Below the pieces are notes generated by a model. That model saw only the letters and a program-made list of their open reading frames with translations. It searched no databases and had not been told where the DNA came from. 64,000 nucleotides of DNA from a phage. Position 1 is the first letter of the stretch. Every line of letters starts with the position of its first letter. Location: NCBI GenBank assembly GCA_037574385.1, contig GCA_037574385.1_4529.1, one strand, 5' to 3'. The position numbers were made by a program, and so were the translations under genes. This document shows, in pieces, positions 3,139-46,705 of this stretch.

Positions 3139-3468
3139 TTATACTCTAGGCTTTTGAGCTTGTTTGGTATTGGATTCCCACGCTGCTTTGGTAATTTTGT
3201 TAGCGGCATAGCCAAAGGCATTAGATAGAACACCTTTAGAGTTGAATACATCCAATCCAATAAGTACACCGGCTGCGTTAAATTTAGGAGCAAAGTACGC
3301 ATTAGTTTTAGAAAGAGCTTTTTTCAATTCAGGGTCTTGAACCAAGCCATCAAAAACGCCTTTACTATTTACTTTATATGTTACTTTGGGATTTTTACCT
3401 TCTTCGATAGCAGCTTTCTGTTCCGCAGATAATGTAACTTCAGTGATAAACTCTTGATATGTTTTCAT
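3139..3468 (-). CDS. Capsid-targeted internal protein candidate (CTS-bearing), 109 aa
   Basis: N-terminus MKTYQEFITE matches the T4 internal-protein capsid-targeting sequence (MKTYQEFIAE). Confidence 0.6.
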   Translation of the reverse strand: MKTYQEFITEVTLSAEQKAAIEEGKNPKVTYKVNSKGVFDGLVQDPELKKALSKTNAYFAPKFNAAGVLIGLDVFNSKGVLSNAFGYAANKITKAAWESNTKQAQKPRV

Positions 3469-3509
3469 ATGTTTCCTTTAAATGTAAATAGGCCTAAGTA
3501 TAGGCCTTA

Positions 3510-4088
3510 TTAATTACCACGGGCTGCATTAGCAACGGCGTAAGCGTACTGAACATTAGCGTCTTTAAACGTACCTTTAGAGGTATCTATTTCTGCCTTA
3601 AAGCCGCCTTTAGCCATAACATCGGCAAATTCTTTACGGAAAGCCATTGCGTCAAGACCTTTCCATGATGATTTATGCTTGGCAAATTCAAGACCAGCGT
3701 AGTTGACAGCTTTAGCCAATTTATTATCAATGACCCATTTACCTGCTTTAGGCACAAACTTCGGGCCTTTTTGTTTAGAGAACAGTTTTAAATTCCAGCG
3801 ACGAAGGTCACTGTCGGCTTTAACAAAAGCTGCGTCTAAGTTACTAGCAACAACATCTTCAATATGAGCAAATTTAAGACCATCAACTTCAATATTTAGA
3901 TCGTTACGCCAGCGAAGTCCTTCCCAAGCGAAGGCTTTAAAGTCGGAAGCCTTTGTAGCTAAGTACCGTTCAATAGGAGCAGTTTTAGGGTCAAAGCCGT
4001 TTCCGCCACGATAATTCCACTCGTCCTTATTAATGCCTTGGACTTTTCCTGCAAAGGCCTCGGCGATAAATTCTTTATATGTTTTCAT
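3510..4088 (-). CDS. Capsid-targeted internal protein candidate, 192 aa (size of T4 IPIII); start at internal MKTYKEFIAEA
   Basis: CTS MKTYKEFIAE preceded by RBS AAGGAAAC; ORF-track ORF extends 14 codons upstream. Confidence 0.6.
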   Translation of the reverse strand: MKTYKEFIAEAFAGKVQGINKDEWNYRGGNGFDPKTAPIERYLATKASDFKAFAWEGLRWRNDLNIEVDGLKFAHIEDVVASNLDAAFVKADSDLRRWNLKLFSKQKGPKFVPKAGKWVIDNKLAKAVNYAGLEFAKHKSSWKGLDAMAFRKEFADVMAKGGFKAEIDTSKGTFKDANVQYAYAVANAARGN

Positions 4089-4153
4089 TTTTGTTTCCTT
4101 GTTTGTTTTGATAGAGTAATTATACCCCATATTAATACTTAAGCGTAAACAAT

Positions 4154-4414
4154 TTAAGCTTTACCGCCAGAAATAATTCCGAAGTTGTTAAAATCGTATC
4201 CAATATCGTCAGCATCTACTTTAGGGCTTGCTACAACATAAGCAATTTCACGACGTTTTGCATAGGTGTTGATTTCTTTACCATCGCCACCTAAGAAAGA
4301 ATACCCATTACGTTTTAATGAGCCAAAGTCTTCGGCATCACCAACGAAAGCTTTAACTTTAAATTTGGGGTCTTTGGCATCTGCTTCAGTGATAAATTCT
4401 TGATACATTTTCAT
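4154..4414 (-). CDS. Capsid-targeted internal protein candidate, 86 aa; start at internal MKMYQEFITEA
   Basis: CTS-like N-terminus MKMYQEFITE with RBS AAGGAAAAA; immediately downstream of denV. Confidence 0.6.
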   Translation of the reverse strand: MKMYQEFITEADAKDPKFKVKAFVGDAEDFGSLKRNGYSFLGGDGKEINTYAKRREIAYVVASPKVDADDIGYDFNNFGIISGGKA

Positions 4415-4421
4415 TTTTTCC

Positions 4422-4835
4422 TTAGTAAATTGATTTACCATAGTATTTGTACCAAGTCGGACGTTGAGCAATTTTTTCATCTAAGCGTGCTTGACTTATC
4501 GCAATGGACGCTTCGGACGGGACATAATTATTACGAAATTCGGCAGGGATGTCGGAAATATCCTGGACTGTCGTGTCCTTTATTTTGAAACCACGTTTCA
4601 AACATTCAGCGATTAGCTCGATTTGACGTAAACGTAAAAATTCGAGTTTGTCATAAAAGAATGTTACGTGACCTGTGCCTAAGATAAATGTTGGAGAGAT
4701 TTTAAAATCTTTTACACGTTTACCGTTTTGGACATGTTTACGGACTGCACCAAATACGCGTGGTAATTCACGATACTCAGCCATAAGATGTTGGTCGGTC
4801 AGTTCAGAAACAAGTGTTAAATTGATACGAGTCAT
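4422..4835 (-). CDS. denV: Endonuclease V (pyrimidine-dimer DNA glycosylase/AP lyase), start at MTRINLTLV
   Basis: Near-identical over full length to T4 DenV as recalled ([12 protein letters not shown]...[10 protein letters not shown]); RBS GGAGGAAATT. Confidence 0.9.
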
Positions 4836-4893: not shown

Positions 4894-5175
4894 CTATTTT
4901 TCTGAAGCGCCTGAAATATATTTTTCAAGACGTTGTTTCATCAGCGAGCCGTTCTTAGCGATTTCTTCCGGTTTATCGCACATACGCAACAAGGCTTCAA
5001 GCTTAACGATATCGCTGGTACGTTCAAATTTGCGAGTATCTATCTTACTAGCAAGTTCAGAAATACGTGCTAATAGACTTTCAGCTTCAACCAAAGCTGC
5101 ACCTAGCTTAGTTGCAAATGTGTCAGTAGCTTCGTTAAGAATAGATTCTGATAAAAATTCACTATATGTTTTCAT
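4894..5175 (-). CDS. Capsid-targeted internal protein candidate, 93 aa; start at [10 protein letters not shown]
   Basis: CTS-like N-terminus; its ATG overlaps the TGA stop of gene e (ATGA coupling); sits at the T4 ipII/ipIII position. Confidence 0.6.
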
Positions 5176-6379: not shown

Positions 6380-6867
6380 CTCAAATTCCTGCATTCGGTA
6401 ATAAAACGTTCAACTTCATTATTCTTGGCCTTTATCTTGTCTTTACGTTCCTGTAAACTACTTTTAACAAGATTAATAATGATGCCTATAGTACCTCCAC
6501 CAATAATACCACCAATAATACTTACGATAGTAGATGCTAATAATATAGCGATAATATCTGGTATGGCAAAGGCACTTACTTTAGTACTAAAAAACCATAC
6601 CGACGGTACAAATATAATCCATCCTGTTATCCATTGGCACTTATTGAAAAACTTTTCAAGCTCAGCTTGAGTTGTTCGTATTACTTCATCGATAGGTTGA
6701 TATCCATTAATGTATCTGTTCACGATAATACCTGCTGGTTGGTCGATTTTAAATTCTTGACAAATACGTTTCACTAAGTAGGATGGACATCCTGTCCAAT
6801 CTACTGAATAGTACGAAATACCTTCATTACCGTCGTCTATATTAGACCAATATGTTTTGTTAATCAT
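6376..6867 (-). CDS. Hypothetical membrane protein (163 aa)
   Basis: Long hydrophobic, Gly/Ile-rich segment WITGWIIFVPSVWFF...IVSIIGGIIGGGTIGIIINLV. Confidence 0.5.
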   Translation of the reverse strand: MINKTYWSNIDDGNEGISYYSVDWTGCPSYLVKRICQEFKIDQPAGIIVNRYINGYQPIDEVIRTTQAELEKFFNKCQWITGWIIFVPSVWFFSTKVSAFAIPDIIAILLASTIVSIIGGIIGGGTIGIIINLVKSSLQERKDKIKAKNNEVERFITECRNLR

Positions 6868-7553
6868 TACCAGCCTTCCATAGGGAATTCCAGATAAACT
6901 TGAGCATTGACACGAATTTCATTGGTAATCTTTTTAACTCGGTCTGTATTACGAGATACACGTCCGAACCAACGCCATCCATTACTAATTGCACGAGAAC
7001 CAGTGTGCCATGTTTGCCAATCAAACTGAAGAAGAGTACGGTCTGGAGCTTCCCATTTCTCTAGTTCACCTTTTTCAATTTTTTCGAGGACTTCTTTGTG
7101 CCACTGGCGATAGATAAGTTCGCCATCAGGAATCTGACTGAACTCTGCAGTTCCTGTTGCAAAATGAGTAGGACACACGTCAGCGTTAACAAGGCCAAGA
7201 ATATGTTCAGACAAATAGCGAGGATTGTCATAATCAGGTTGTCCTGCAGTAATAAAATGTTGACCAACCGGAATATCCGGACGTGGTACATCGTCATGGT
7301 GATAACCTGGGATAGCAGGGTACCAACCAGGCATCAGCATGTGGACTCGTGAATCAAATACTACATCCGAGCCTTTCCAATCGTCAGGGAGATTTTGGAT
7401 AAAGCTACGAGTAATTGGACCGCCGTTATCCCAAGCAAAACTCAAATCACAGTTAAAGAACATTTGTTCATTTTTGATTTGGTCATTTTGTACGTTATGA
7501 GCAAAACCACCTACTGCACGAGCTTGACTATTAAACACTTTAGAACTATTCAT
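6867..7553 (-). CDS. Hypothetical protein (228 aa), no recognisable motif
   Basis: Long ORF in hyperplastic region; His/Asp-rich patches (HHDD, PTHFATG). Confidence 0.5.
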   Translation of the reverse strand: MNSSKVFNSQARAVGGFAHNVQNDQIKNEQMFFNCDLSFAWDNGGPITRSFIQNLPDDWKGSDVVFDSRVHMLMPGWYPAIPGYHHDDVPRPDIPVGQHFITAGQPDYDNPRYLSEHILGLVNADVCPTHFATGTAEFSQIPDGELIYRQWHKEVLEKIEKGELEKWEAPDRTLLQFDWQTWHTGSRAISNGWRWFGRVSRNTDRVKKITNEIRVNAQVYLEFPMEGW

Positions 7554-11787: not shown

Positions 11788-12015
11788 TTATTTTTTAATC
11801 AAATTGACATAAAACTTGGCGTCTTCTGGGTGCATGCCTTCGCAATATTCTTCAACCATGAACTTCTTAACAGCTTCATAAGGACCACTCAGATTAAGCT
11901 CAGTTGTCCAGAACTTGGAATCTTGGACTGAATCGATACGAACTTCAGGGTGTCGGTTGCGAATAACTTCTTCGGTGTATTCATAATCAACGACATCAAT
12001 ACTAACTTTAGCCAT
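11788..12015 (-). CDS. Hypothetical small protein (75 aa)
   Basis: ORF with RBS GAGGAGAAA preceded by the promoter/5'UTR module also found at ~48620. Confidence 0.45.
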   Translation of the reverse strand: MAKVSIDVVDYEYTEEVIRNRHPEVRIDSVQDSKFWTTELNLSGPYEAVKKFMVEEYCEGMHPEDAKFYVNLIKK

Positions 12016-12044
12016 TTTGTTTCTCCTCTGTAGTTGATAAGTCT

Positions 12045-12074
12045 ATAGTATCACCATCCTTGGTGTTTGTACAT
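12045..12074 (-). promoter_or_regulatory. Early-promoter-like element (TGATACTAT extended -10; divergent -35)
   Basis: About 30 bp identical to the cassette upstream of 48344..48613 (gtagttgataagtctatagtatcac). Confidence 0.4.
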
Positions 12075-12082
12075 CATTATTT

Positions 12083-12388
12083 TTAATTTTTCCAACTTAA
12101 CAACTTGTAGTGTCCTTCATTCGTACGAGGTTTATCCCAAGAAATACTAATATATGATTCACTGTCAATAGAAGTCGCCGGGTTTTTCTCTACCGTAAGA
12201 CCTTCACTTTCCAGCCATTCAATAGTGTTTGCGCATAAATCTGAAGAACACCTCATCGGAAACTGGCAAGATTTTTCACCTTTAGCTGCAGCATTATACA
12301 TCTTTTCTAAAATACGCTTTTGCACGTTTTTAAAAATAGTTTCAGCAGATTCTTCAGATTTTTTATTCAGTTCAGTGTAAAGACTCAT
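12083..12388 (-). CDS. Hypothetical small protein (101 aa; start at MSLYTEL with SD GAGGAG)
   Basis: ORF; ORF-track ORF extends 9 codons upstream. Confidence 0.45.
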   Translation of the reverse strand: MSLYTELNKKSEESAETIFKNVQKRILEKMYNAAAKGEKSCQFPMRCSSDLCANTIEWLESEGLTVEKNPATSIDSESYISISWDKPRTNEGHYKLLSWKN

Positions 12389-12445
12389 AATATTCTCCTC
12401 ATTAATAGGGCTCATAATATCTCAATCATAAGCCCATGTACGCAT

Positions 12446-12721
12446 TTATTTCATATTATCGAAATATTCTTCAGCGATTTCGACATTATCATGGTAAACT
12501 TTAGAAGACAGTTTAACATAACCTTCTGCTGCGAACATATTAATCACAACCTTTACAGTATACCATTGTCCGTCTTCATTACCCATTACTGCGTAAGTTT
12601 CAAACATCGGATGGTCAGGTCCAATAACTTTAATATCATTCACCGTACGTCCGAAATCTTCTGGAATGCATTTCATAAAGAAGTTGAACAGTTCACCGTA
12701 ATTATCCATTTCATTCTCCAA
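12446..12721 (-). CDS. Hypothetical small protein (91 aa)
   Basis: ORF downstream of an early promoter. Confidence 0.45.
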   Translation of the reverse strand: MENEMDNYGELFNFFMKCIPEDFGRTVNDIKVIGPDHPMFETYAVMGNEDGQWYTVKVVINMFAAEGYVKLSSKVYHDNVEIAEEYFDNMK

Positions 12722-12751
12722 GGTTTTTCTGTATCGGTAGTTGATAGTTGT

Positions 12752-12781
12752 ATAGTACCACGGAAGAACAGGGATGTAAAC
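12752..12781 (-). promoter_or_regulatory. T4-type early promoter (GTTTAC-N18-TACTAT)
   Basis: Minus-strand motif; same cassette family as ~4864 and ~48644. Confidence 0.5.
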
Positions 12782-12883
12782 AGTTTTGTGAAAAAAATTT
12801 TTAAAAAGTTTTGGGGAATTCTAGGACAGGGAGAGGAAAGGCCTAGATACCAAAAAGCCCTATCTAAATGATAGGGCTTAAAA

Positions 12884-13447
12884 TTATTTACCTAGTTTAG
12901 TTATTATAGCTTCGGCAGCAGCTTTTAGCTTAGATGCAGTGTTAATACGATTTTTAATTTCGGTATACGCATCGCCAAGAACATCAAGGCTATCAGAATA
13001 AACACTTACACTATTGCGTTCGCTATTTGAAATAGAACCTTTAGTTTTACGATCAAAATCAGTGTACACGTCTTGAAGATCACGGGCTGCCTTCTTTGCA
13101 TCATCCAATGCGTCAAGAGCTTTATTCAAAGCATTGACATATTTTTTAGTGTCAAACATATTCTTAGAAATTTTAACAGGTGCACGTTCAGGAGTAGCTA
13201 AGGCGGATTTAGGAACCTGTGTGCCAGCTGCCAGTTTCTTAGAAATTTTGAAAAACGCTTTATTGAAACTATTTTCTTGACTCATCGTAAAAGAACTAGT
13301 ATCGATGTTATACATTTCAATAGCTTTAGCTTTCCACTTAAGAAAATCGCCACGGTCTTTTGGATCCAAGTTGAAGAATACTTTAGTAAGATCTGCTTCA
13401 GATGGTAATTTTGCTGCTTCGGTTAAAAATTCGGCATAGGTTTTCAT
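12884..13447 (-). CDS. Capsid-targeted internal protein candidate (187 aa) beside the tRNA cluster
   Basis: N-terminus MKTYAEFLTEA (CTS-like); Lys/Ala-rich. Confidence 0.55.
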   Translation of the reverse strand: MKTYAEFLTEAAKLPSEADLTKVFFNLDPKDRGDFLKWKAKAIEMYNIDTSSFTMSQENSFNKAFFKISKKLAAGTQVPKSALATPERAPVKISKNMFDTKKYVNALNKALDALDDAKKAARDLQDVYTDFDRKTKGSISNSERNSVSVYSDSLDVLGDAYTEIKNRINTASKLKAAAEAIITKLGK

Positions 13448-13531
13448 TTAAAATCCTTGAAATAATTTATCGGTTTGTTATTAATTATTTATTACTTTGG
13501 TATTATCAGTAACAGCATTCTCTGAGTGATT

Positions 13532-13564
13532 CAAACTAAAAAGCCCCAACCTTTCGGAAGGGGC
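13532..13564 (-). terminator. Rho-independent terminator closing the tRNA/stable-RNA cluster
   Basis: Minus-strand hairpin GCCCC..CC-GAAA-GG..GGGGC followed by UUUUUAGUUU. Confidence 0.6.
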
Positions 13565-13617
13565 TAAGCCTTGCGGCAACCTTGTCGGGGTTCCACCTGC
13601 TAAGGCAAGTGTTTGTA

Positions 13618-13708
13618 CGAAACGCCGGGATTCGAACCCGGTTATTAAGCAGTTGACGCTACTCAATATTTTTAAAAGGCCATATCTCGACCATATCCGA
13701 ACGTTCCG
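13618..13708 (-). ncRNA. tRNA-like or small stable RNA (canonical T-arm; no clean cloverleaf found)
   Basis: Minus-strand CCGGG-UUCGAAU-CCCGG T-arm and a pairable 7-bp acceptor-like stem 91 nt apart; D and anticodon arms not resolved. Confidence 0.25.
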
Positions 13709-13876
13709 TCAAAAACGCTACTCGGCTTACGGCAAAGATATTTCCTCGAATCGATAATTCTGTGCGCCGTTTCTGCTGTGATGTAAGGGGATATTAACAA
13801 ATCGTAAAGATTTATTAAGACCAGTCCTTACTCAGGGAACATCAGTCCGACGACTTGCCGGTAGCGACCCGGCTTC

Positions 13877-14221
13877 TTATTTTGACATATCATCAATTTG
13901 TTCTCTACGTCTACGCCATAGATTAATTACTTCATCAACACATTCAGCGTTTGATATATGACGGCAATAATATAATGATTCGCGTTTCTGGAACCGATGT
14001 TGCAATGGGATTTCGTTTAAAAGGTCTTTACGGTCAAAGTATTCAAAACTAGTTAACCCGGAACGATTTTTAATGAACTTCCAATGACCGAATTCATTTT
14101 GAACATAGATGTAATCGGCATGTTGATAAAGTGAATTAATCAATCGGTCTGAAATAACTGTATCATGTTCGTTAAAATAAAACGTTAAATCATGAACTAC
14201 TAAATAGACATTACCTTTCAT
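13877..14221 (-). CDS. Hypothetical protein embedded in the tRNA cluster (start at MKGNVYLVV; ORF-track start would overlap tRNA-Arg)
   Basis: ORF between tRNA-Arg and the stable-RNA region; no nuclease motif recognised. Confidence 0.4.
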   Translation of the reverse strand: MKGNVYLVVHDLTFYFNEHDTVISDRLINSLYQHADYIYVQNEFGHWKFIKNRSGLTSFEYFDRKDLLNEIPLQHRFQKRESLYYCRHISNAECVDEVINLWRRRREQIDDMSK

Positions 14222-14239
14222 ATTTTCCTCACTTATAAT

Positions 14240-14316
<77 letters not shown>

Positions 14317-14322
14317 AATATA

Positions 14323-14396
14323 TGACCCAGACCAGATTCGAACTGGTAACCTTTCCCTTATGAGGGGACTGCTGCTAACCGTTGAGCTACAGGGCC
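14323..14396 (-). tRNA. tRNA with anticodon CAU (Ile2-type or Met), CCA not encoded
   Basis: Acceptor GGCCCUG/CUGGGUC (one U-U mismatch), anticodon loop CUCAUAA, T-arm ACCAG-UUCGAAU-CUGGU; lies 6 nt upstream of tRNA-Arg. Confidence 0.55.
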
Positions 14397-14475
14397 TAAA
14401 TAACTTTCTATTATGAAAGGCACTTTAGAGCACCTTTGGTAATAGAGGGTATGAATTAATAATATCACATAATTC

Positions 14476-14991
14476 TTAAAGCAAATCAATCATTTTAACA
14501 GTCGGCAAAACGATTTCTTCTTCAATATAAGCAAATTCAACACATTCGACTACACGCAAGAAATCATAATCATAATATTCAGAAGCATGGCCAAGAATAT
14601 CAATGAGACCTTCTGATACTAAATATCCATTCTCACGGAACAGGTCAAATACACGTGATTCATCTTCTTCAGATTTATTACCGAGGTCGACTTCAATATC
14701 AAAGACCTTTTTAATGAATTCTGGATAAAGCTGGTCTGAGAACAATCCTTCAACCAAGTATTCATAGATTAAAAGCGAGCAATCACTGAATGGTGTATTA
14801 CCACAGTAACGTTCAGCTTTAGTGCTAGAATGACGACTCTTAAATTTCTTCAAAAGATATTTAAACTGTTGGAGCTCATGCTCTTCCACTTCAAACAATG
14901 TTTTGGTTTTATAGTTGTCACCATCATTTTCATAGGTAGTGACATCAATTACATAACCCTTAGGAATTGTACTGCCTAAACAAATATTCAT
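14476..14991 (-). CDS. Hypothetical acidic protein (171 aa)
   Basis: ORF; Glu/Asp-rich. Confidence 0.45.
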   Translation of the reverse strand: MNICLGSTIPKGYVIDVTTYENDGDNYKTKTLFEVEEHELQQFKYLLKKFKSRHSSTKAERYCGNTPFSDCSLLIYEYLVEGLFSDQLYPEFIKKVFDIEVDLGNKSEEDESRVFDLFRENGYLVSEGLIDILGHASEYYDYDFLRVVECVEFAYIEEEIVLPTVKMIDLL

Positions 14992-14995
14992 TTAC

Positions 14996-15286
14996 TCACC
15001 GCACCATATTAATGTAATTATATTCAATACAACGTAATTTCAAAGGATTCTTGAAAATATTGTATTCAAGAGGGCCTTTTTCTGTTTCAATAAAGAAATC
15101 AAAGTTAACTGTGTTAAATTTACCGTCTTCACAGAGTAATTTAACTTGCGAAGATGAACGGTCGATATAAACCTTTTCAACCTCAAAGTTAGTCAGAATA
15201 CCATAGTCATTAACTAGTGCTTTAGCTGCACGTTGATCGCTTTCGTATCCATTCTCAATAGATGACACTTTAGCATAAAGAATCAT
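14996..15286 (-). CDS. Hypothetical protein (96 aa)
   Basis: ORF; ATGA overlap with upstream gene. Confidence 0.45.
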   Translation of the reverse strand: MILYAKVSSIENGYESDQRAAKALVNDYGILTNFEVEKVYIDRSSSQVKLLCEDGKFNTVNFDFFIETEKGPLEYNIFKNPLKLRCIEYNYINMVR

Positions 15287-15645
15287 GAATGTTCCACCAC
15301 TTCAAAGGTATGAGCATCAACAATATGATACCAGTCAAAATTTTCTTCTGCGTTTTTATAAATTTCGCGAAGAGCCTCAACAGTTTTTCCTGTAGCAACA
15401 AGGTCGTCAATACCACCAAGAGGATAACAGTCATAACCAGCAAACAGAAGGAAATTAATAGTTTCTGTAGGTTCTGGATGCAGAACTCCATTATCGTCTA
15501 CCACTTCAAAGAAAGTGTAAGAAGGAGTATAAGTTTTAATCCAGGCCCATGCTTGTGCTGCTGAATCAAATGGCCTGCGTATCAAACGACAATCATGGTC
15601 TTTAGAAGGATTTGCTTCAAAATCCGCATATACGTGATATTTCAT
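15283..15645 (-). CDS. Hypothetical protein (120 aa; start at MKYHVY, SD AAGGTGAG)
   Basis: ORF with RBS. Confidence 0.45.
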   Translation of the reverse strand: MKYHVYADFEANPSKDHDCRLIRRPFDSAAQAWAWIKTYTPSYTFFEVVDDNGVLHPEPTETINFLLFAGYDCYPLGGIDDLVATGKTVEALREIYKNAEENFDWYHIVDAHTFEVVEHS

Positions 15646-15646
15646 T

Positions 15647-15853
15647 TTACTCACCTTTTGCAATTTTATCCATAACGATAGCGATTAAGCCGATTAGAAA
15701 TGCTACTACCAATGAGATAGAATTTTCGGTTGTTGTCAGTAGTCCACAAATGAATCCTACAAACATCGAAAAACTAAAAGCCATTGAAGCAATTACTACA
15801 GCAACATTACGAATCAGTTCAGCGCGTTTCATTTTATTTCTCCATTTACTCAT
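15647..15853 (-). CDS. Hypothetical small membrane protein (68 aa)
   Basis: Two hydrophobic helices; follows an early promoter. Confidence 0.45.
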   Translation of the reverse strand: MSKWRNKMKRAELIRNVAVVIASMAFSFSMFVGFICGLLTTTENSISLVVAFLIGLIAIVMDKIAKGE

Positions 15854-15869
15854 TTCGTTTTGATAGGAC

Positions 15870-15899
15870 TACTATAACATAGTCCTATCAGCATGTAAA
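15870..15899 (-). promoter_or_regulatory. T4-type early promoter within palindromic cassette
   Basis: GTTTAC-N18-TATAGT; palindrome gataggactactataacatagtcctatc, identical to the copy at ~7881. Confidence 0.55.
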
Positions 15900-15903
15900 C
15901 TAC

Positions 15904-16191
15904 TTACAGAAGAGTTTTTGCAATAATTTTAAGCTGAGCTACAGAAATATGCTTAGCTTTAAACAGTGCAGTCTCTTCAGCCGGAGAGATAACAATAGTA
16001 GCGCCGTCTTTCTTAGCAGACCATCCATCCCCTAAGTAAACAGTACCTTTTACTTCTTCGCCATCAACCAGACTAATCATTGGTTTACCCTCACGTCCTT
16101 TATTTGCTTTAATAACTTCAGAAGTAAGGGTTGCTTCGGTCAGAGTAGAAACGTTAGCAACAGGTGATATAAATTCTTTATAGGTTTTCAT
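15904..16191 (-). CDS. ipI: Internal protein I (IPI-like; in T4 an inhibitor of GmrSD type IV restriction)
   Basis: 95 aa, CTS MKTYKEFIS; central region matches recalled T4 IPI (SEVIKANKG.EGKPMISLVDGEE.KGTVYLGDGWSAKKDGATIVISPAEETALF); beside 57B as in T4. Confidence 0.75.
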   Translation of the reverse strand: MKTYKEFISPVANVSTLTEATLTSEVIKANKGREGKPMISLVDGEEVKGTVYLGDGWSAKKDGATIVISPAEETALFKAKHISVAQLKIIAKTLL

Positions 16192-42985: not shown

Positions 42986-44557
42986 ATGAAATTTAATATC
43001 TTAAGTTTGTTTGCTCCATGGGCAAAAATGGACGAACGTGATTACAAAGACCAAGAAAAAGAAAATTTAGAATCGATTACCACACCAAAATTAGATGATG
43101 GTGCTAAAGAATACGAAGTATCTGAAAATGAAGCACAGCAAACATATAATGCTATGTTTCAGAGAATGTTTGGTAGCCAAGAACCAGGGCTCAAATCAAC
43201 CCGTGAATTAATCGATACATACCGAAATTTGATGACGAACTATGAAGTAGACAATGCAGTCTCTGAAATAGTTTCCGATGCTATCGTATACGAAGATGAT
43301 ACAGAAGTCGTTTCTATAAATTTAGACAACACAAAATTTAGTCCAAATATCAAATCAATGATGTTGGATGAATTTAACGAAGTGTTAAATCATTTATCTT
43401 TCCAACGTAAAGGTTCAGACCATTTTAGACGTTGGTATGTGGATTCTCGAATTTTCTTCCATAAAATTATTGACCCTAAACGCCCTAAAGAAGGTATTAA
43501 AGAGCTTCGTCGTTTAGACCCACGTCAAGTTCAATATGTCCGTGAAGTTATTACAACCACTGAAGCCGGTGTTAAAATAGTCAAGGGTTATAAAGAATAT
43601 TTCATTTATGACACATCACACGAATCTTATGCTTGTGACGGTCGCATATATGAAGCTGGCACAAAAATAAAAATCCCTAAAGCCGCGATTGTTTATGCCC
43701 ATTCTGGTTTAGTTGATTGTTGTGGTAAAAATATCATTGGTTATTTGCATCGGGCTATTAAGCCGGCGAACCAATTAAAACTTCTTGAAGATGCTGTCGT
43801 AATTTATCGTATTACTCGTGCTCCCGATCGTCGTGTATGGTACGTTGATACAGGTAATATGCCTTCAAGAAAAGCAGCAGAACATATGCAACATGTTATG
43901 AATACGATGAAAAACCGTATTGCATATGATGCTACTACAGGCAAGATTAAAAACCAGCAGCATATTATGTCGATGACCGAAGATTATTGGTTACAACGAC
44001 GTGATGGTAAAGCAGTAACAGAAGTTGATACATTACCGGGGGCAGATAATACTGGAAATATGGAAGATGTACGTTGGTTCCGTAATGCGCTTTATATGGC
44101 TTTACGTATTCCAATTACCCGTATTCCAAGCGACCAAGGCGGTATACAGTTTGATGCCGGTACTTCTATTACACGAGATGAATTGACATTTGGTAAATTT
44201 ATTCGTGAGCTGCAACATAAATTTGAAGAGATATTCCTAGATCCGCTTAAAACTAATTTAATTCTTAAAGGAATTATTACAGAAGATGAGTGGAATGATG
44301 AAATAAATAATATTAAGATAAAATTTCATCGGGATAGTTATTTCTCGGAATTAAAGGATGCTGAGATTCTGGAGCGTCGCATTAATATGCTTCAGATGGC
44401 CGAACCATTTATTGGTAAATATATTTCCCACAGAACAGCTATGAAAGATATTCTTCAGATGTCTGACGAGGAAATTGAACAAGAGGCTAAGCAAATTGAA
44501 GAAGAGTCGAAAGAGGCTCGTTTCCAAGACCCCGACCAAGAACAAGAGGATTTTTAA
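42986..44557 (+). CDS. 20: gp20 portal vertex protein
   Basis: 523 aa (T4 524); synteny. Confidence 0.95.
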
Positions 44558-44793
44558 TGGACGATTTAATTCAAGCTATTAAATCAAACGACCTCGTTGC
44601 TACTCGAAAGTTTTTTGAAAGTGCAATGGCAGAAAAAACGGTTCGTTTGATTGAAGCACGCAAAGCAGAAATCGCTTCTCAATTTTTGATTGAAGGCGAA
44701 GAACCTGAAGAAGAAAAGAAAGCTAAAGCTTCGGAAGACGACGCTGATGAAGGCGATGACGACGAAGACGAAGATGATGAGGACGATGAATAA
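44557..44793 (+). CDS. 67: gp67 prohead core protein
   Basis: 78 aa with acidic D/E-rich C-terminus. Confidence 0.8.
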
Positions 44794-45218
44794 TGTATCT
44801 TATCCCTGAATCTTATGAATTAGTACTCGAAAATGTCGAAGCACTTATTCCTGAAGCACAGGGCCGAATCGATGCATTGTCTTCTGCTCTCGATATTGAC
44901 GATATAAATACTATTATCGAGAACATGCTTGAAACTGAAACGGATTTAGCTGTTGCAATGGCTTCCATTATTAATGAAGAACAGTTAAATGAGTTTATCG
45001 TTAAACATGTTTCTTCTCGTGGTGAAGTCACCCGCACTAAAGACCGTAAAACTCGTGAACGTAACGCGTTCCAAACAACTGGTCTTTCTAAAGCAAAACG
45101 TAGACAAATCGCTCGTAAGGTCGTTAAAGCTAAAAAAGCTAACCCTTCAGGCCAAGTTAAAGGCTTGCGTAAGCGTAAAAAAGCTCTTAAACGTCGTAAA
45201 GCATTAGGATTAAGCTAA
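44793..45218 (+). CDS. 68: gp68 prohead core protein
   Basis: 141 aa as T4 gp68; basic C-terminus. Confidence 0.8.
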
Positions 45219-45859
45219 TGAATAAACCCGAGTTACTTATTGAAACTTGGGGTCAACTCGGTGAGATTATTGATGGCGTTCCAATGTTGGAATCTCATGA
45301 TGGAAAAGATTCTGGCTTAAAACCAGGGCTTTATATAGAAGGTATTTTTCTTCAGGCAGAGGTTGTTAACCGAAATAAACGTTTATATCCTAAACGCGTT
45401 TTGGAAAAAGCAGTAAGTGACTATATTAAAGAACAAGTCGCAACTAAACAGGCCCTTGGAGAATTAAACCATCCACCTCGCGCAAATGTTGACCCTATGC
45501 AAGCCGCTATCATTATTGAAGATATGTGGTGGAAAGGAAACGATGTATATGGACGCGCTAGAATTATTGAAGGCGACCATGGTCCCGGCGATAAATTAGC
45601 TGCTAATATACGAGCTGGTTGGATTCCAGGTGTTTCCTCTCGTGGTCTTGGTTCTTTAACCGACACCAATAAAGGGTACCGTATCGTGAACGAAGGATTT
45701 AAATTAACCGTCGGCGTAGATGCCGTATGGGGACCTTCTGCTCCAGATGCTTGGGTTACTCCTAAACAAATATCAGAATCAGAAAATTCGGTGGAAATCA
45801 CCAAAAACAGTGCTGATGAAGCATTTAAAGCTCTCGCAGAGAGTTTAAAAGCATTATAA
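45218..45859 (+). CDS. 21: gp21 prohead core protease
   Basis: 213 aa (T4 212); synteny 68-21-22-23. Confidence 0.9.
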   Translation: MNKPELLIETWGQLGEIIDGVPMLESHDGKDSGLKPGLYIEGIFLQAEVVNRNKRLYPKRVLEKAVSDYIKEQVATKQALGELNHPPRANVDPMQAAIIIEDMWWKGNDVYGRARIIEGDHGPGDKLAANIRAGWIPGVSSRGLGSLTDTNKGYRIVNEGFKLTVGVDAVWGPSAPDAWVTPKQISESENSVEITKNSADEAFKALAESLKAL

Positions 45860-45862
45860 ATA
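45855..45862 (+). promoter_or_regulatory. T4 late promoter TATAAATA for gene 22
   Basis: Exact TATAAATA 30 bp upstream of gene 22 start. Confidence 0.55.
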
Positions 45863-45892
45863 ATAATGTAATCTAAACCACAGGACACTAAA

Positions 45893-46705
45893 ATGATCAA
45901 AGAACAACTTTTGAAAGAAGCTCAGAATATCGAGACTTCAGTTGCTCTTAATAGTGTTTTCGAATCAGTAGAACTGTCTCCGGACGTTAAAGCTAATTTC
46001 AGCACTGTATTCGAAGCCACCGTTAAGCAGGAAGCAGTCAAACTTGCTGAATCTCATATCAAAGCCATCGCCGAAAAAGCCGAAGAAGAAGTTGAAAAGG
46101 CTAAAGAAGATGCTGAAGAGAAAGCTGATAAAAAATTGGCTGAACAAGCTTCTAAATTCCTGGACCATCTTGCAAAAGAATGGCTCGCAGAAAACCAAAT
46201 CGCAGTTGATAAAGGCATTAAAGCTGATTTGTTCGAATCCATGCTTGGTGGTCTGAAAGAACTGTTTGTTGAACATAACGTTGTTGTTCCAGAAGAATCT
46301 GTAGATGTTGTAGCAGAAATGGAAGAAGAGCTGGCCGAACATAAAGAAGAAACCGCTCGTTTGTTCGAAGAAGTTACCAAACGTGATGCATATATCAATT
46401 ACGTTCAGCGTGAAACCGCTATTAATGAAAGCGTGAAAGACCTGACTGAATCTCAGAAAGAAAAAGTTATTGGCCTGGTTGAAGGTATGGATTATTCTGA
46501 CGCATTTGGTACTAAGTTAACTGCTATTGTAGAAATGGTTAAAGGTTCTACTAAAGAAGAAGCCGCTATTACCGAAAGTATAAATACAGTTGACAATGAC
46601 GCTGCCGGTCTTAATTTTGTTGCCGAAGCAGTTGACACTACCACAACTCAGGTAGAACAGAATTCTAATGTAAGTTTATATGCGAAAGTCGCATCTCGTT
46701 TCTAA
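45893..46705 (+). CDS. 22: gp22 prohead core scaffold protein
   Basis: 270 aa acidic coiled-coil protein (T4 269). Confidence 0.9.
   Translation: MIKEQLLKEAQNIETSVALNSVFESVELSPDVKANFSTVFEATVKQEAVKLAESHIKAIAEKAEEEVEKAKEDAEEKADKKLAEQASKFLDHLAKEWLAENQIAVDKGIKADLFESMLGGLKELFVEHNVVVPEESVDVVAEMEEELAEHKEETARLFEEVTKRDAYINYVQRETAINESVKDLTESQKEKVIGLVEGMDYSDAFGTKLTAIVEMVKGSTKEEAAITESINTVDNDAAGLNFVAEAVDTTTTQVEQNSNVSLYAKVASRF

Follow-up and report, generated by a model that had tools for sequence, protein, structure and literature searches.

A candidate capsid-targeted internal protein encoded behind the tRNA cluster of an RB69-like T-even phage

The locus and its gene

The DNA analysed here (the window) is a stretch of 64,000 nucleotides (nt) from contig GCA_037574385.1_4529.1 of NCBI GenBank assembly GCA_037574385.1, which by its sequence comes from an RB69-like T-even phage (Mosigvirus), and its subject is the gene at positions 12884-13447 on the minus strand, encoding a protein of 187 amino acids (aa) that begins MKTYAEFLTEAAKL, its first ten residues being a candidate capsid targeting sequence (CTS). 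We consider it probable, at about 0.75, that the product is a packaged, CTS-processed internal protein of the T4 type, as judged from the sequence features set out below. The region around the gene shows 97-98% identity to phages phiC120 and phiE142 and 96% to RB69, and the genes in this part of the window all lie on the minus strand. The features of the locus, in transcription order, are:

15904-16191, minus strand: ipI orthologue, first in transcription order and 2.5 kb from the target gene
Between ipI and tRNA-Met, minus strand: tRNA.4, tRNA.3, tRNA.2 and an RB69ORF151c-like gene
14323-14396, minus strand: tRNA-Met
14240-14316, minus strand: tRNA-Arg, followed by an RB69ORF150c-like open reading frame (ORF)
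13535-13882, minus strand: rnaD/rnaC-like stable RNAs, 92.6% identical to T4 rnaD and rnaC
13537-13565, minus strand: terminator-like hairpin with U-run that closes the rnaC-like RNA on its 3' side and bounds the cassette upstream (fold -20.6 kcal/mol, z -2.75)
13486-13493, minus strand: predicted late-promoter-like AATAAATA, a 7/8 match to the T4 late promoter TATAAATA
13454-13458, minus strand: Shine-Dalgarno sequence AAGGA, 6 nt before the ATG
12884-13447, minus strand: coding sequence of the putative 187-aa internal-protein precursor, PHROG 2280 (ORF; 165 records; dN/dS 0.07; PHROG E 8e-53)
12852-12879, minus strand: the gene's own terminator-like hairpin (10 bp) with U-run (terminator scan; fold -15.7 kcal/mol, z -5.15)
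12752-12780, minus strand: early-promoter-like site TTTACA-17-TACTAT with extended TG, which would serve e.8 (scan)
12709-12446, minus strand: e.8, the next gene after the target
12852-13537, minus strand: 686-nt cassette (late-promoter-like motif, coding sequence, terminator) absent from T4 (blastn against the T4 locus)

A preliminary description of this DNA had given exactly these coordinates for a 187-aa ORF, and they were borne out, with an ATG start. It had also set the gene directly upstream of the tRNA/stable-RNA region, a placement that is valid in plus-strand coordinates only, since the local genes are all on the minus strand; in transcription order tRNA-Met, tRNA-Arg and the stable RNAs come first and the gene follows downstream.

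The gene is real and under purifying selection. A 695-nt stretch holding it was found in 165 phage records at 93-99% nucleotide identity, always over its full length, and tblastn gave the same count of 165, these carriers being part of 752 records that match the surrounding region. Between the window and Tequatrovirus RB14 there are 17 synonymous and 5 non-synonymous differences, corresponding to a ratio of non-synonymous to synonymous substitution rates (dN/dS) of 0.07. The contrary idea, that this is a chance ORF or a decaying remnant beside the stable RNAs with no function, can point to the RB69 reference (locus 6550-7112), where a frameshift after residue 122 splits the gene into ORF149c and ORF148c, and to several other records in which two hypothetical proteins are annotated across the cassette; such split copies could reflect pseudogenisation or sequencing error. 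Against it stand not only the substitution pattern but also intact full-length copies in most of the 165 records, homologues recognisable in other genera down to 20% identity, and a structure prediction that becomes confident once the alignment is deep enough, and we regard it as already refuted by the pattern of conservation. The gene nevertheless looks dispensable in the laboratory, because T4 does without it, the RB69 copy is frameshifted and several records have it split in two ORFs. Two chimeric metagenomic ORFs carry pieces of it: P0011 fuses target residues 97-122 to a NudE-like C-terminus, and P0010 joins an unrelated N-terminus to target residues 113-173, which point to deletions or recombination in the region within natural phage populations.

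Terminator-like hairpins on both sides insulate the gene. A scan of the minus strand for sigma-70-like sites returned none within 127 nt before the start codon; on that strand the first one further upstream is at 14603-14574, and the earlier statement that the gene lacks its own early promoter therefore holds. The late-promoter-like AATAAATA lies between the upstream hairpin and the ribosome-binding site. At the equivalent place, after the hairpin and 30-45 nt before the ATG, the JS98 and fHe-Yen9-01 orthologues match TATAAATA perfectly; the counterpart in RB14 and the metagenomic contig L003 is GATAAATA (a 7/8 match), and RB69 likewise shows a 7/8 match. From these signals we tentatively infer a late transcription unit. 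The consensus TATAAATA itself is enriched in the window (18 copies against 8.4 expected), its copies lying mostly on the plus strand at 40-54 kb before head genes, as T4-type late promoters should.

A conserved putative capsid targeting sequence with a predicted gp21 site

The two parts into which the precursor is predicted to be cleaved are:

13418-13447, minus strand: CTS, codons 1-10, MKTYAEFLTE, with a predicted cut by the prohead protease gp21 after Glu10 (L-T-E/A, the slash marking the cut)
12887-13417, minus strand: predicted mature protein, residues 11-187, 177 aa, 19.6 kDa, isoelectric point (pI) 9.5

In T4, residues 1-10 of IPIII are sufficient for packaging, also of foreign proteins (PMC9026906, summarising Mullaney and Black 1996); residues 4 and 7 of this tag serve targeting and residues 8 and 10 processing, and Asp at position 10 blocks cleavage (PMC9026906). 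Set against the T4 IPII and IPIII decapeptide MKTYQEFIAE, the target's MKTYAEFLTE keeps Y4, F7, L8 and E10, followed by Ala at residue 11. Both targeting determinants, an aromatic residue at 4 and Phe at 7, are thus present as Y4 and F7, and the L/I-x-E site at 8-10 is present as L8-T9-E10 with Glu rather than Asp.

The same residues are conserved in the family to which the protein belongs. The target matches PHROG 2280, a family of unknown function, at full length (E 8.4e-53, residues 1-181). An exhaustive HMMER search with residues 11-187, leaving the tag out, retrieved one relative at 30% identity (P0013) with the N-terminus MITFNEFLNE, and two further searches seeded from P0013 led to a family of 46 proteins. 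N-termini were located by a pattern that itself demanded an aromatic residue at position 4, [FILY] at 7 and Glu at 10 and left position 8 free, and among the 19 distinct N-termini so located position 4 is Tyr or Phe in 19/19, position 7 Phe in 18/19, position 8 Leu or Ile in 18/19 and position 10 Glu in 19/19, with positions 2, 3, 5 and 9 varying freely. By this pattern every full-length member bears a CTS; the sequences that failed it were N-terminally truncated fragments only. Because the key residues are kept and their neighbours vary across relatives of 20-30% identity, selection appears to have acted on the peptide and not through DNA homology. A further [LI]xE site, 5-8 residues past the first, is present in about half of the distinct N-termini, which fits a propeptide meant for removal. 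The clade of the window protein has LPSE at this second position, outside the [LI]xE motif, and a single cut after Glu10 is therefore predicted. The site ending at residue 10 is the sole [LI]xE in the target protein; the lack of an internal site in the mature part was dropped as evidence, about one being expected by chance (an estimate from composition).

Conservation of the decapeptide might also have a different cause: it could, for example, be a gene-start or recombination linker shared by ip-type genes, the protein being unpackaged and acting in the cytoplasm, for instance in late expression or assembly. Consistent with this, no virion proteome was found to list any family member, and in a Jiaodavirus virion proteome (PMC13119998) all hypothetical proteins had low peptide counts, in a genus that has only a 58-aa remnant of the family. 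A linker of this kind would not explain why exactly the targeting and cleavage residues are conserved in relatives of 20-30% identity whose neighbouring residues vary, nor why many members have a second gp21-type site shortly after the first; moreover, in T4 the decapeptide alone packages foreign proteins (PMC9026906). We therefore hold an unpackaged protein to be very improbable.

Packaging genes and other CTS proteins in the window

If the target is packaged, the machinery that would act on its CTS is encoded in the same genome:

44557-44793: gp67 (Pfam GP67), next to gp22 together with gp68
44793-45218: gp68, adjoining gp21
45218-45859, plus strand: gp21 prohead protease, which would be expected to remove the CTS in trans (Pfam Peptidase_S77, E 1e-106)
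45893-46705, plus strand: gp22 scaffolding core protein, part of the prohead core to which a CTS guides its cargo, acting in trans (Pfam T4_CASP, E 1.5e-89)

Both gp21 and the scaffolding core (gp22, gp67 and gp68) are thus encoded here, with Pfam Peptidase_S77, T4_CASP and GP67 matches at 44557-46705, and the window also encodes the portal protein gp20 as well as gp23 and gp24.

A loose CTS pattern, M-x-x-[YF]-x-[EDQ]-[FILY]-x-x-E, run on the six-frame translation of the 64-kb window, gave 5 matches, each at an ORF start behind a GGA Shine-Dalgarno sequence, and no internal match. The motif is far from a chance occurrence, because all 5 matches are ORF starts behind a ribosome-binding site. 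Besides the target, the denV-e cluster holds four CTS ORFs:

4894-5175: CTS ORF
4154-4414: CTS ORF, MKMYQEFITE
3510-4088: CTS ORF, MKTYKEFIAE, the IPIII orthologue
3139-3468: CTS ORF, MKTYQEFITE

To have called the target the fifth CTS protein was correct beside these four, and the ipI orthologue at 15904-16191, beyond the tRNA region, makes a sixth. The latter starts MKTYKEFISPVANVSTLTE: Glu10 is absent and the first L/I-x-E ends at residue 19, which predicts a propeptide of about double the length found in the other five.

Without their tags the six proteins are dissimilar, no pair of mature parts reaching E < 0.6 by BLASTP. When the target was compared with the IPIII orthologue by hhalign, only the first 25 residues aligned (probability 6%), and in a tblastn search of the target against the T4 ipI/ipII/ipIII locus only the first 12-32 residues matched (E >= 0.12). 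By BLASTP, hhalign and tblastn, then, no kinship of sequence or fold to Ip1, Ip2 or Ip3 was found. The preliminary description of the protein as unlike the others in sequence agrees with these results, as does its description as Lys/Ala-rich with the composition (K 13.9%, A 12.8%).

A family resident after the tRNA cluster

Relatives in JS98, KMB17, fHe-Yen9-01 and L003 match the PHROG 2280 profile. A tblastn search with a Karamvirus member brought in about 190 more phage records, partial matches among them, which are all annotated as hypothetical and span Karamvirus, Dhakavirus, Gaprivervirus, Winklervirus and Tegunavirus, with Klebsiella Jiaodavirus matching by the N-domain only. Together with the 165 close copies, the family thus amounts to about 350 sequenced T-even-type phages (some of the distant relatives being partial). 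No inspected record annotates the family as an internal protein, and the annotators of RB14, who named Ip4 and Ip5, left this gene hypothetical. In every locus inspected the gene follows closely on the cluster's last tRNA:

RB14: tRNA-Arg, stable RNAs, gene, e.8
JS98: tRNA-Arg, orf136, orf135, e.8
KMB17: gene 270 nt after tRNA-Tyr
fHe-Yen9-01: gene after tRNA-Gly, then a tandem paralogue, MLEYSEFLKE
ValerieMcCarty01: 58-residue remnant after tRNA-Thr
L003 (metagenomic contig): gene after tRNA-Gly and tRNA-Tyr

The same position is held in Mosigvirus, a subset of Tequatrovirus, Dhakavirus, Karamvirus and Tegunavirus, and by the Jiaodavirus remnant, and by these comparisons of sequence at least six Tevenvirinae genera have the family behind their tRNA cluster. 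This does not support the picture of an isolated cargo gene, recently placed and fitted with a CTS: the gene belongs to PHROG 2280, found at the same locus across genera and always with a CTS. A single family, standing in the same post-tRNA place and bearing a CTS in all full-length members, has therefore long been settled at this locus, and T4 lacks it.

Two observations were made alongside. In fHe-Yen9-01 (3501-4616) the tandem paralogues gp154 (MLQYNEFLKE) and gp153 (MLEYSEFLKE) are both full-length PHROG 2280 matches, so the family can duplicate in place; phiR1-RT and TG1 are absent among the phages with a homologue of fHe-Yen9-01 gp154. On L003, the gene next to P0013 (2092-2526) starts MITFKQFLNE and matches Pfam ART-PolyVal and DUF3990 (ADP-ribosyltransferase-like), and its product looks like a CTS-tagged, probably packaged ADP-ribosyltransferase reminiscent of T4 Alt.

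Domain architecture and possible function

AlphaFold2 run on 40 diverse sequences gave a mean confidence (pLDDT, predicted local distance difference test) of 82.5, and a run on ten near-identical sequences was poor (pLDDT 57). The model divides the mature protein as follows:

13229-13399, minus strand: N-terminal three-helix domain, residues 17-73, conserved family-wide (block pLDDT 81-88; alignment columns)
13148-13228, minus strand: flexible linker containing Pro, Ala and Lys, residues 74-100 (pLDDT 51-63; length variable)
12890-13147, minus strand: C-terminal long antiparallel helical hairpin, residues 101-186 (pLDDT > 90)

The protein is basic, with two helical domains and a flexible linker in the model, and each segment of the mature protein has a computed net positive charge. 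The linker is short in the target and reaches about 50 residues in relatives, where it is rich in Pro, Ala and Lys. The C-terminal domain occurs in at least two unrelated types within the family, proteins of the second type matching the family profile in their N-terminal half only. Searches for known folds gave no assignment: Pfam returned nothing above threshold, the top hit, cytochrome b562 (17.7 bits against a cut-off of 30), being set aside as helical-bundle noise; the family profile found nothing below E 0.07 among PDB sequences; and a BFVD structure search recovered family members only.

Putting these features together, the protein would be made late in infection, and its decapeptide would bind it to the scaffolding core during prohead assembly. 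Cleavage by gp21 after Glu10 would free the 19.6-kDa basic protein, which would remain in the head among the DNA, be injected with it, and act in the new host ahead of any phage gene expression. Its likeliest role would be to neutralise a host defence protein, by analogy with T4 Ip1, Ip2 and Ip3, each of which inhibits a different GmrSD-type type IV restriction enzyme (PMC12373910); internal proteins have been described as a diverse defence-countering set sharing only the CTS (PMC3012670). Taken by itself, this anti-defence role is a tentative assignment that falls short of being probable. On such a scheme packaging, exit or association with DNA may be the task of the conserved N-domain, and binding of the target that of the exchangeable C-terminal hairpin.

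Abundant internal proteins have traditionally been assigned a bulk role in association with DNA, and the target could likewise be packaged via its CTS and have no specific host target, acting as a basic head protein in charge neutralisation or in DNA organisation or ejection. The typical internal-protein properties of the target (mature pI 9.5, 13.9% Lys), with all segments net positive, suit such a role, as do the long Pro/Ala/Lys-rich linkers of the relatives, which resemble histone-tail-like DNA binders, the genomic position conserved in at least six genera, and the report that internal-protein lysines contact DNA phosphates in the T4 head (PMC3012670). A bulk component would, however, hardly be expected to be missing from T4 and from about three quarters of the related records (carriers 165/752), or to be frameshifted in RB69; IPIII, abundant and long seen as bulk, proved to be a specific GmrSD inhibitor (PMC12373910); and exchange of the C-domain within the family is easier to read as a switch of target than as charge neutralisation. 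We consider a purely bulk role unlikely, if less so than an unpackaged protein.

Several points weigh against the proposal of a packaged internal protein with a role in counter-defence. The structure offers no functional clue, the C-domain being a generic helical hairpin. The late-promoter-like AATAAATA matches at 7/8 positions only and occurs 11 times in the window against 9.8 expected, i.e. at chance. The position kept across genera is unlike the patchy, hypervariable anti-defence internal proteins and suits a general role equally well. In Karamvirus KMB17 the family member starts MINF and two other CTS ORFs start MKTY, so the tag does not simply follow the phage; the idea that the CTS follows the phage and not the cargo, for which L003 speaks with two adjacent genes starting MITF, is contradicted by KMB17 and was given up. 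Finally, a literature search on JS98, fHe-Yen9-01, phiR1-RT/TG1, Karamvirus, fPS-90 and the ValerieMcCarty phages found no virion proteome covering a full-length family member.

A further and decidedly doubtful extension of the packaged-protein reading would make PHROG 2280, of all internal-protein families in the Tevenvirinae, the one conserved most widely, and at the same time an injected effector of modular build, with a fixed CTS and N-domain for packaging and exit, a linker, and an exchangeable C-domain setting the host-defence target. Were this true, the family would represent a naturally occurring scaffold for protein delivery, anchored where the tRNA cluster ends, and its C-domain types could be paired with particular host defence systems.

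Comparison with known internal proteins

The closest parallel is T4 IPIII, together with its orthologue in the window (3510-4088). They share with the target the type of decapeptide, closed in each case by an L/I-x-E site for gp21, and the mature proteins are alike in size (182 aa for the orthologue, 177 aa for the target) and in pI (9.6 and 9.5); both also belong to T-even genes that are dispensable, in the case of the target as far as its distribution indicates. They differ in that sequence similarity is confined to the first 25 residues, in location, IPIII adjoining e and denV and the target following the tRNA cluster, and in that IPIII has GmrSD of ECOR17 as its target (PMC12373910) and none is known for the protein described here. 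With T4 IPI* (Ip1, the inhibitor of the GmrS/GmrD type IV enzyme) the target has in common a CTS-type propeptide, predicted in its case, and a gene near the tRNA region. IPI* is cleaved by gp21 and injected, as the target would be. IPI has a 19-residue propeptide and a mature form of 76 aa with a compact alpha/beta fold (PMC3012670), whereas the target is modelled as all-helical with two domains, and BLASTP detects no sequence similarity between the two.

The polymorphic Ip genes of the T-even phages, like the genes considered here, encode unrelated small proteins with only the CTS in common and differ between close phages. They are reportedly the subject of work by Repoila et al. in 1994, at the ipI and ipII/ipIII loci, and the target may be named there. 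"At least 10 Ips" have been reported in T-even phages (PMC12373910). Unlike the polymorphic genes of the ipI and ipII/ipIII loci, the target family sits between rnaC and e.8.

The kind of protein has long been known, and the new contribution, small but of use, lies in a third ip locus, an unannotated family, a two-domain architecture with an exchangeable C-terminus and a delimited cassette. Since all three T4 internal proteins inhibit type IV restriction enzymes, each further CTS protein becomes a candidate anti-defence factor, one that would act before any phage gene is expressed. Many carriers of the family are therapy candidates, and every copy is labelled hypothetical; recognition as an internal protein would improve the annotation of hundreds of genomes and add a third ip locus beside the two classical ones.

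A delimited cassette exchanged between phages

A blastn comparison of the window with T4 gave flanks of about 92% identity on both sides, and both cassette ends map to the same 12 nt of T4, where e.8 and rnaC are 284 nt apart with no intervening gene. The cassette ends share a 9-nt direct repeat, GGGCTTTTT, of the two terminator hairpins; on the plus strand it reads AAAAAGCCC, at 12852-12860 and 13538-13546. The boundaries offer a clean natural case of how T-even phages lose or gain a gene at terminator repeats. Synteny in other genera makes it more economical to explain the absence of the cassette from T4 by loss in that lineage.

More recent movement is indicated by a block of higher similarity:

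12437-13878, minus strand: e.8, cassette and stable RNAs, 92-95% identical to RB14, the flanking genes being 69-76% identical

The synonymous divergence (dS) from RB14 is 0.16 for the target and 0.36 for e.8, and for e, nudE, e.6, tRNA.2 and ipI it ranges from 0.9 to saturation. A dS of 0.16 against values of at least 0.9 in the flanking genes shows that the cassette moved recently between Mosigvirus and Tequatrovirus. The modular shuffling of CTS-tagged cargo proposed in the preliminary description thus survives in part: the cassette is absent from T4 and was recently exchanged between genera, and it is not newly placed cargo with a CTS attached. Petrov et al. 2010 makes no mention of internal proteins.

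In several respects the cassette resembles the PeSL cassettes (Arbiol et al. 2010, PMC2839356; Comeau et al. 2014, PMC4122927), being a single non-essential gene with its own signals and stem-loop flanks, present or absent between phages, with its junction inside repeated stem-loop sequence; the junction motif contains GGGC, as in T4 deletions (PMC2839356). Unlike in PeSL cassettes, only the downstream flank combines a stem-loop (12855-12879) with an early-promoter-like site (12780-12752). The upstream flank is the stable-RNA terminator, a stem-loop only, and the target's own signal is late-promoter-like and not early, so the PeSL composite of promoter and stem-loop was not found on both flanks.

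Other features of the window

An Rfam scan of 12000-16000 reported two tRNAs and nothing else, and the stable-RNA stretch at 13535-13882 had neither an ARAGORN nor an Rfam match. As neither program reports them, the rnaC/rnaD stable RNAs (species 1 and 2) appear to be without a curated family; the stretch contains a tRNA-like T-arm, CCGGGTTCGAATCCCGG.

At its start the window combines two sources. Bases 1-1936 match the E. coli chromosome at 100% identity, covering yfiE, eamB and the 3' part of grcA, and phage homology begins at 1745 with an RB69-like vs.6 (ORF 1752-2114), the GrcA-like glycyl radical cofactor of the phage. About 190 nt common to host grcA and phage vs.6 form the overlap of the two sources, and the window is therefore a chimera joined within that segment; the host/phage chimera at 1-2114 may be either an assembly artefact or a real recombinant.

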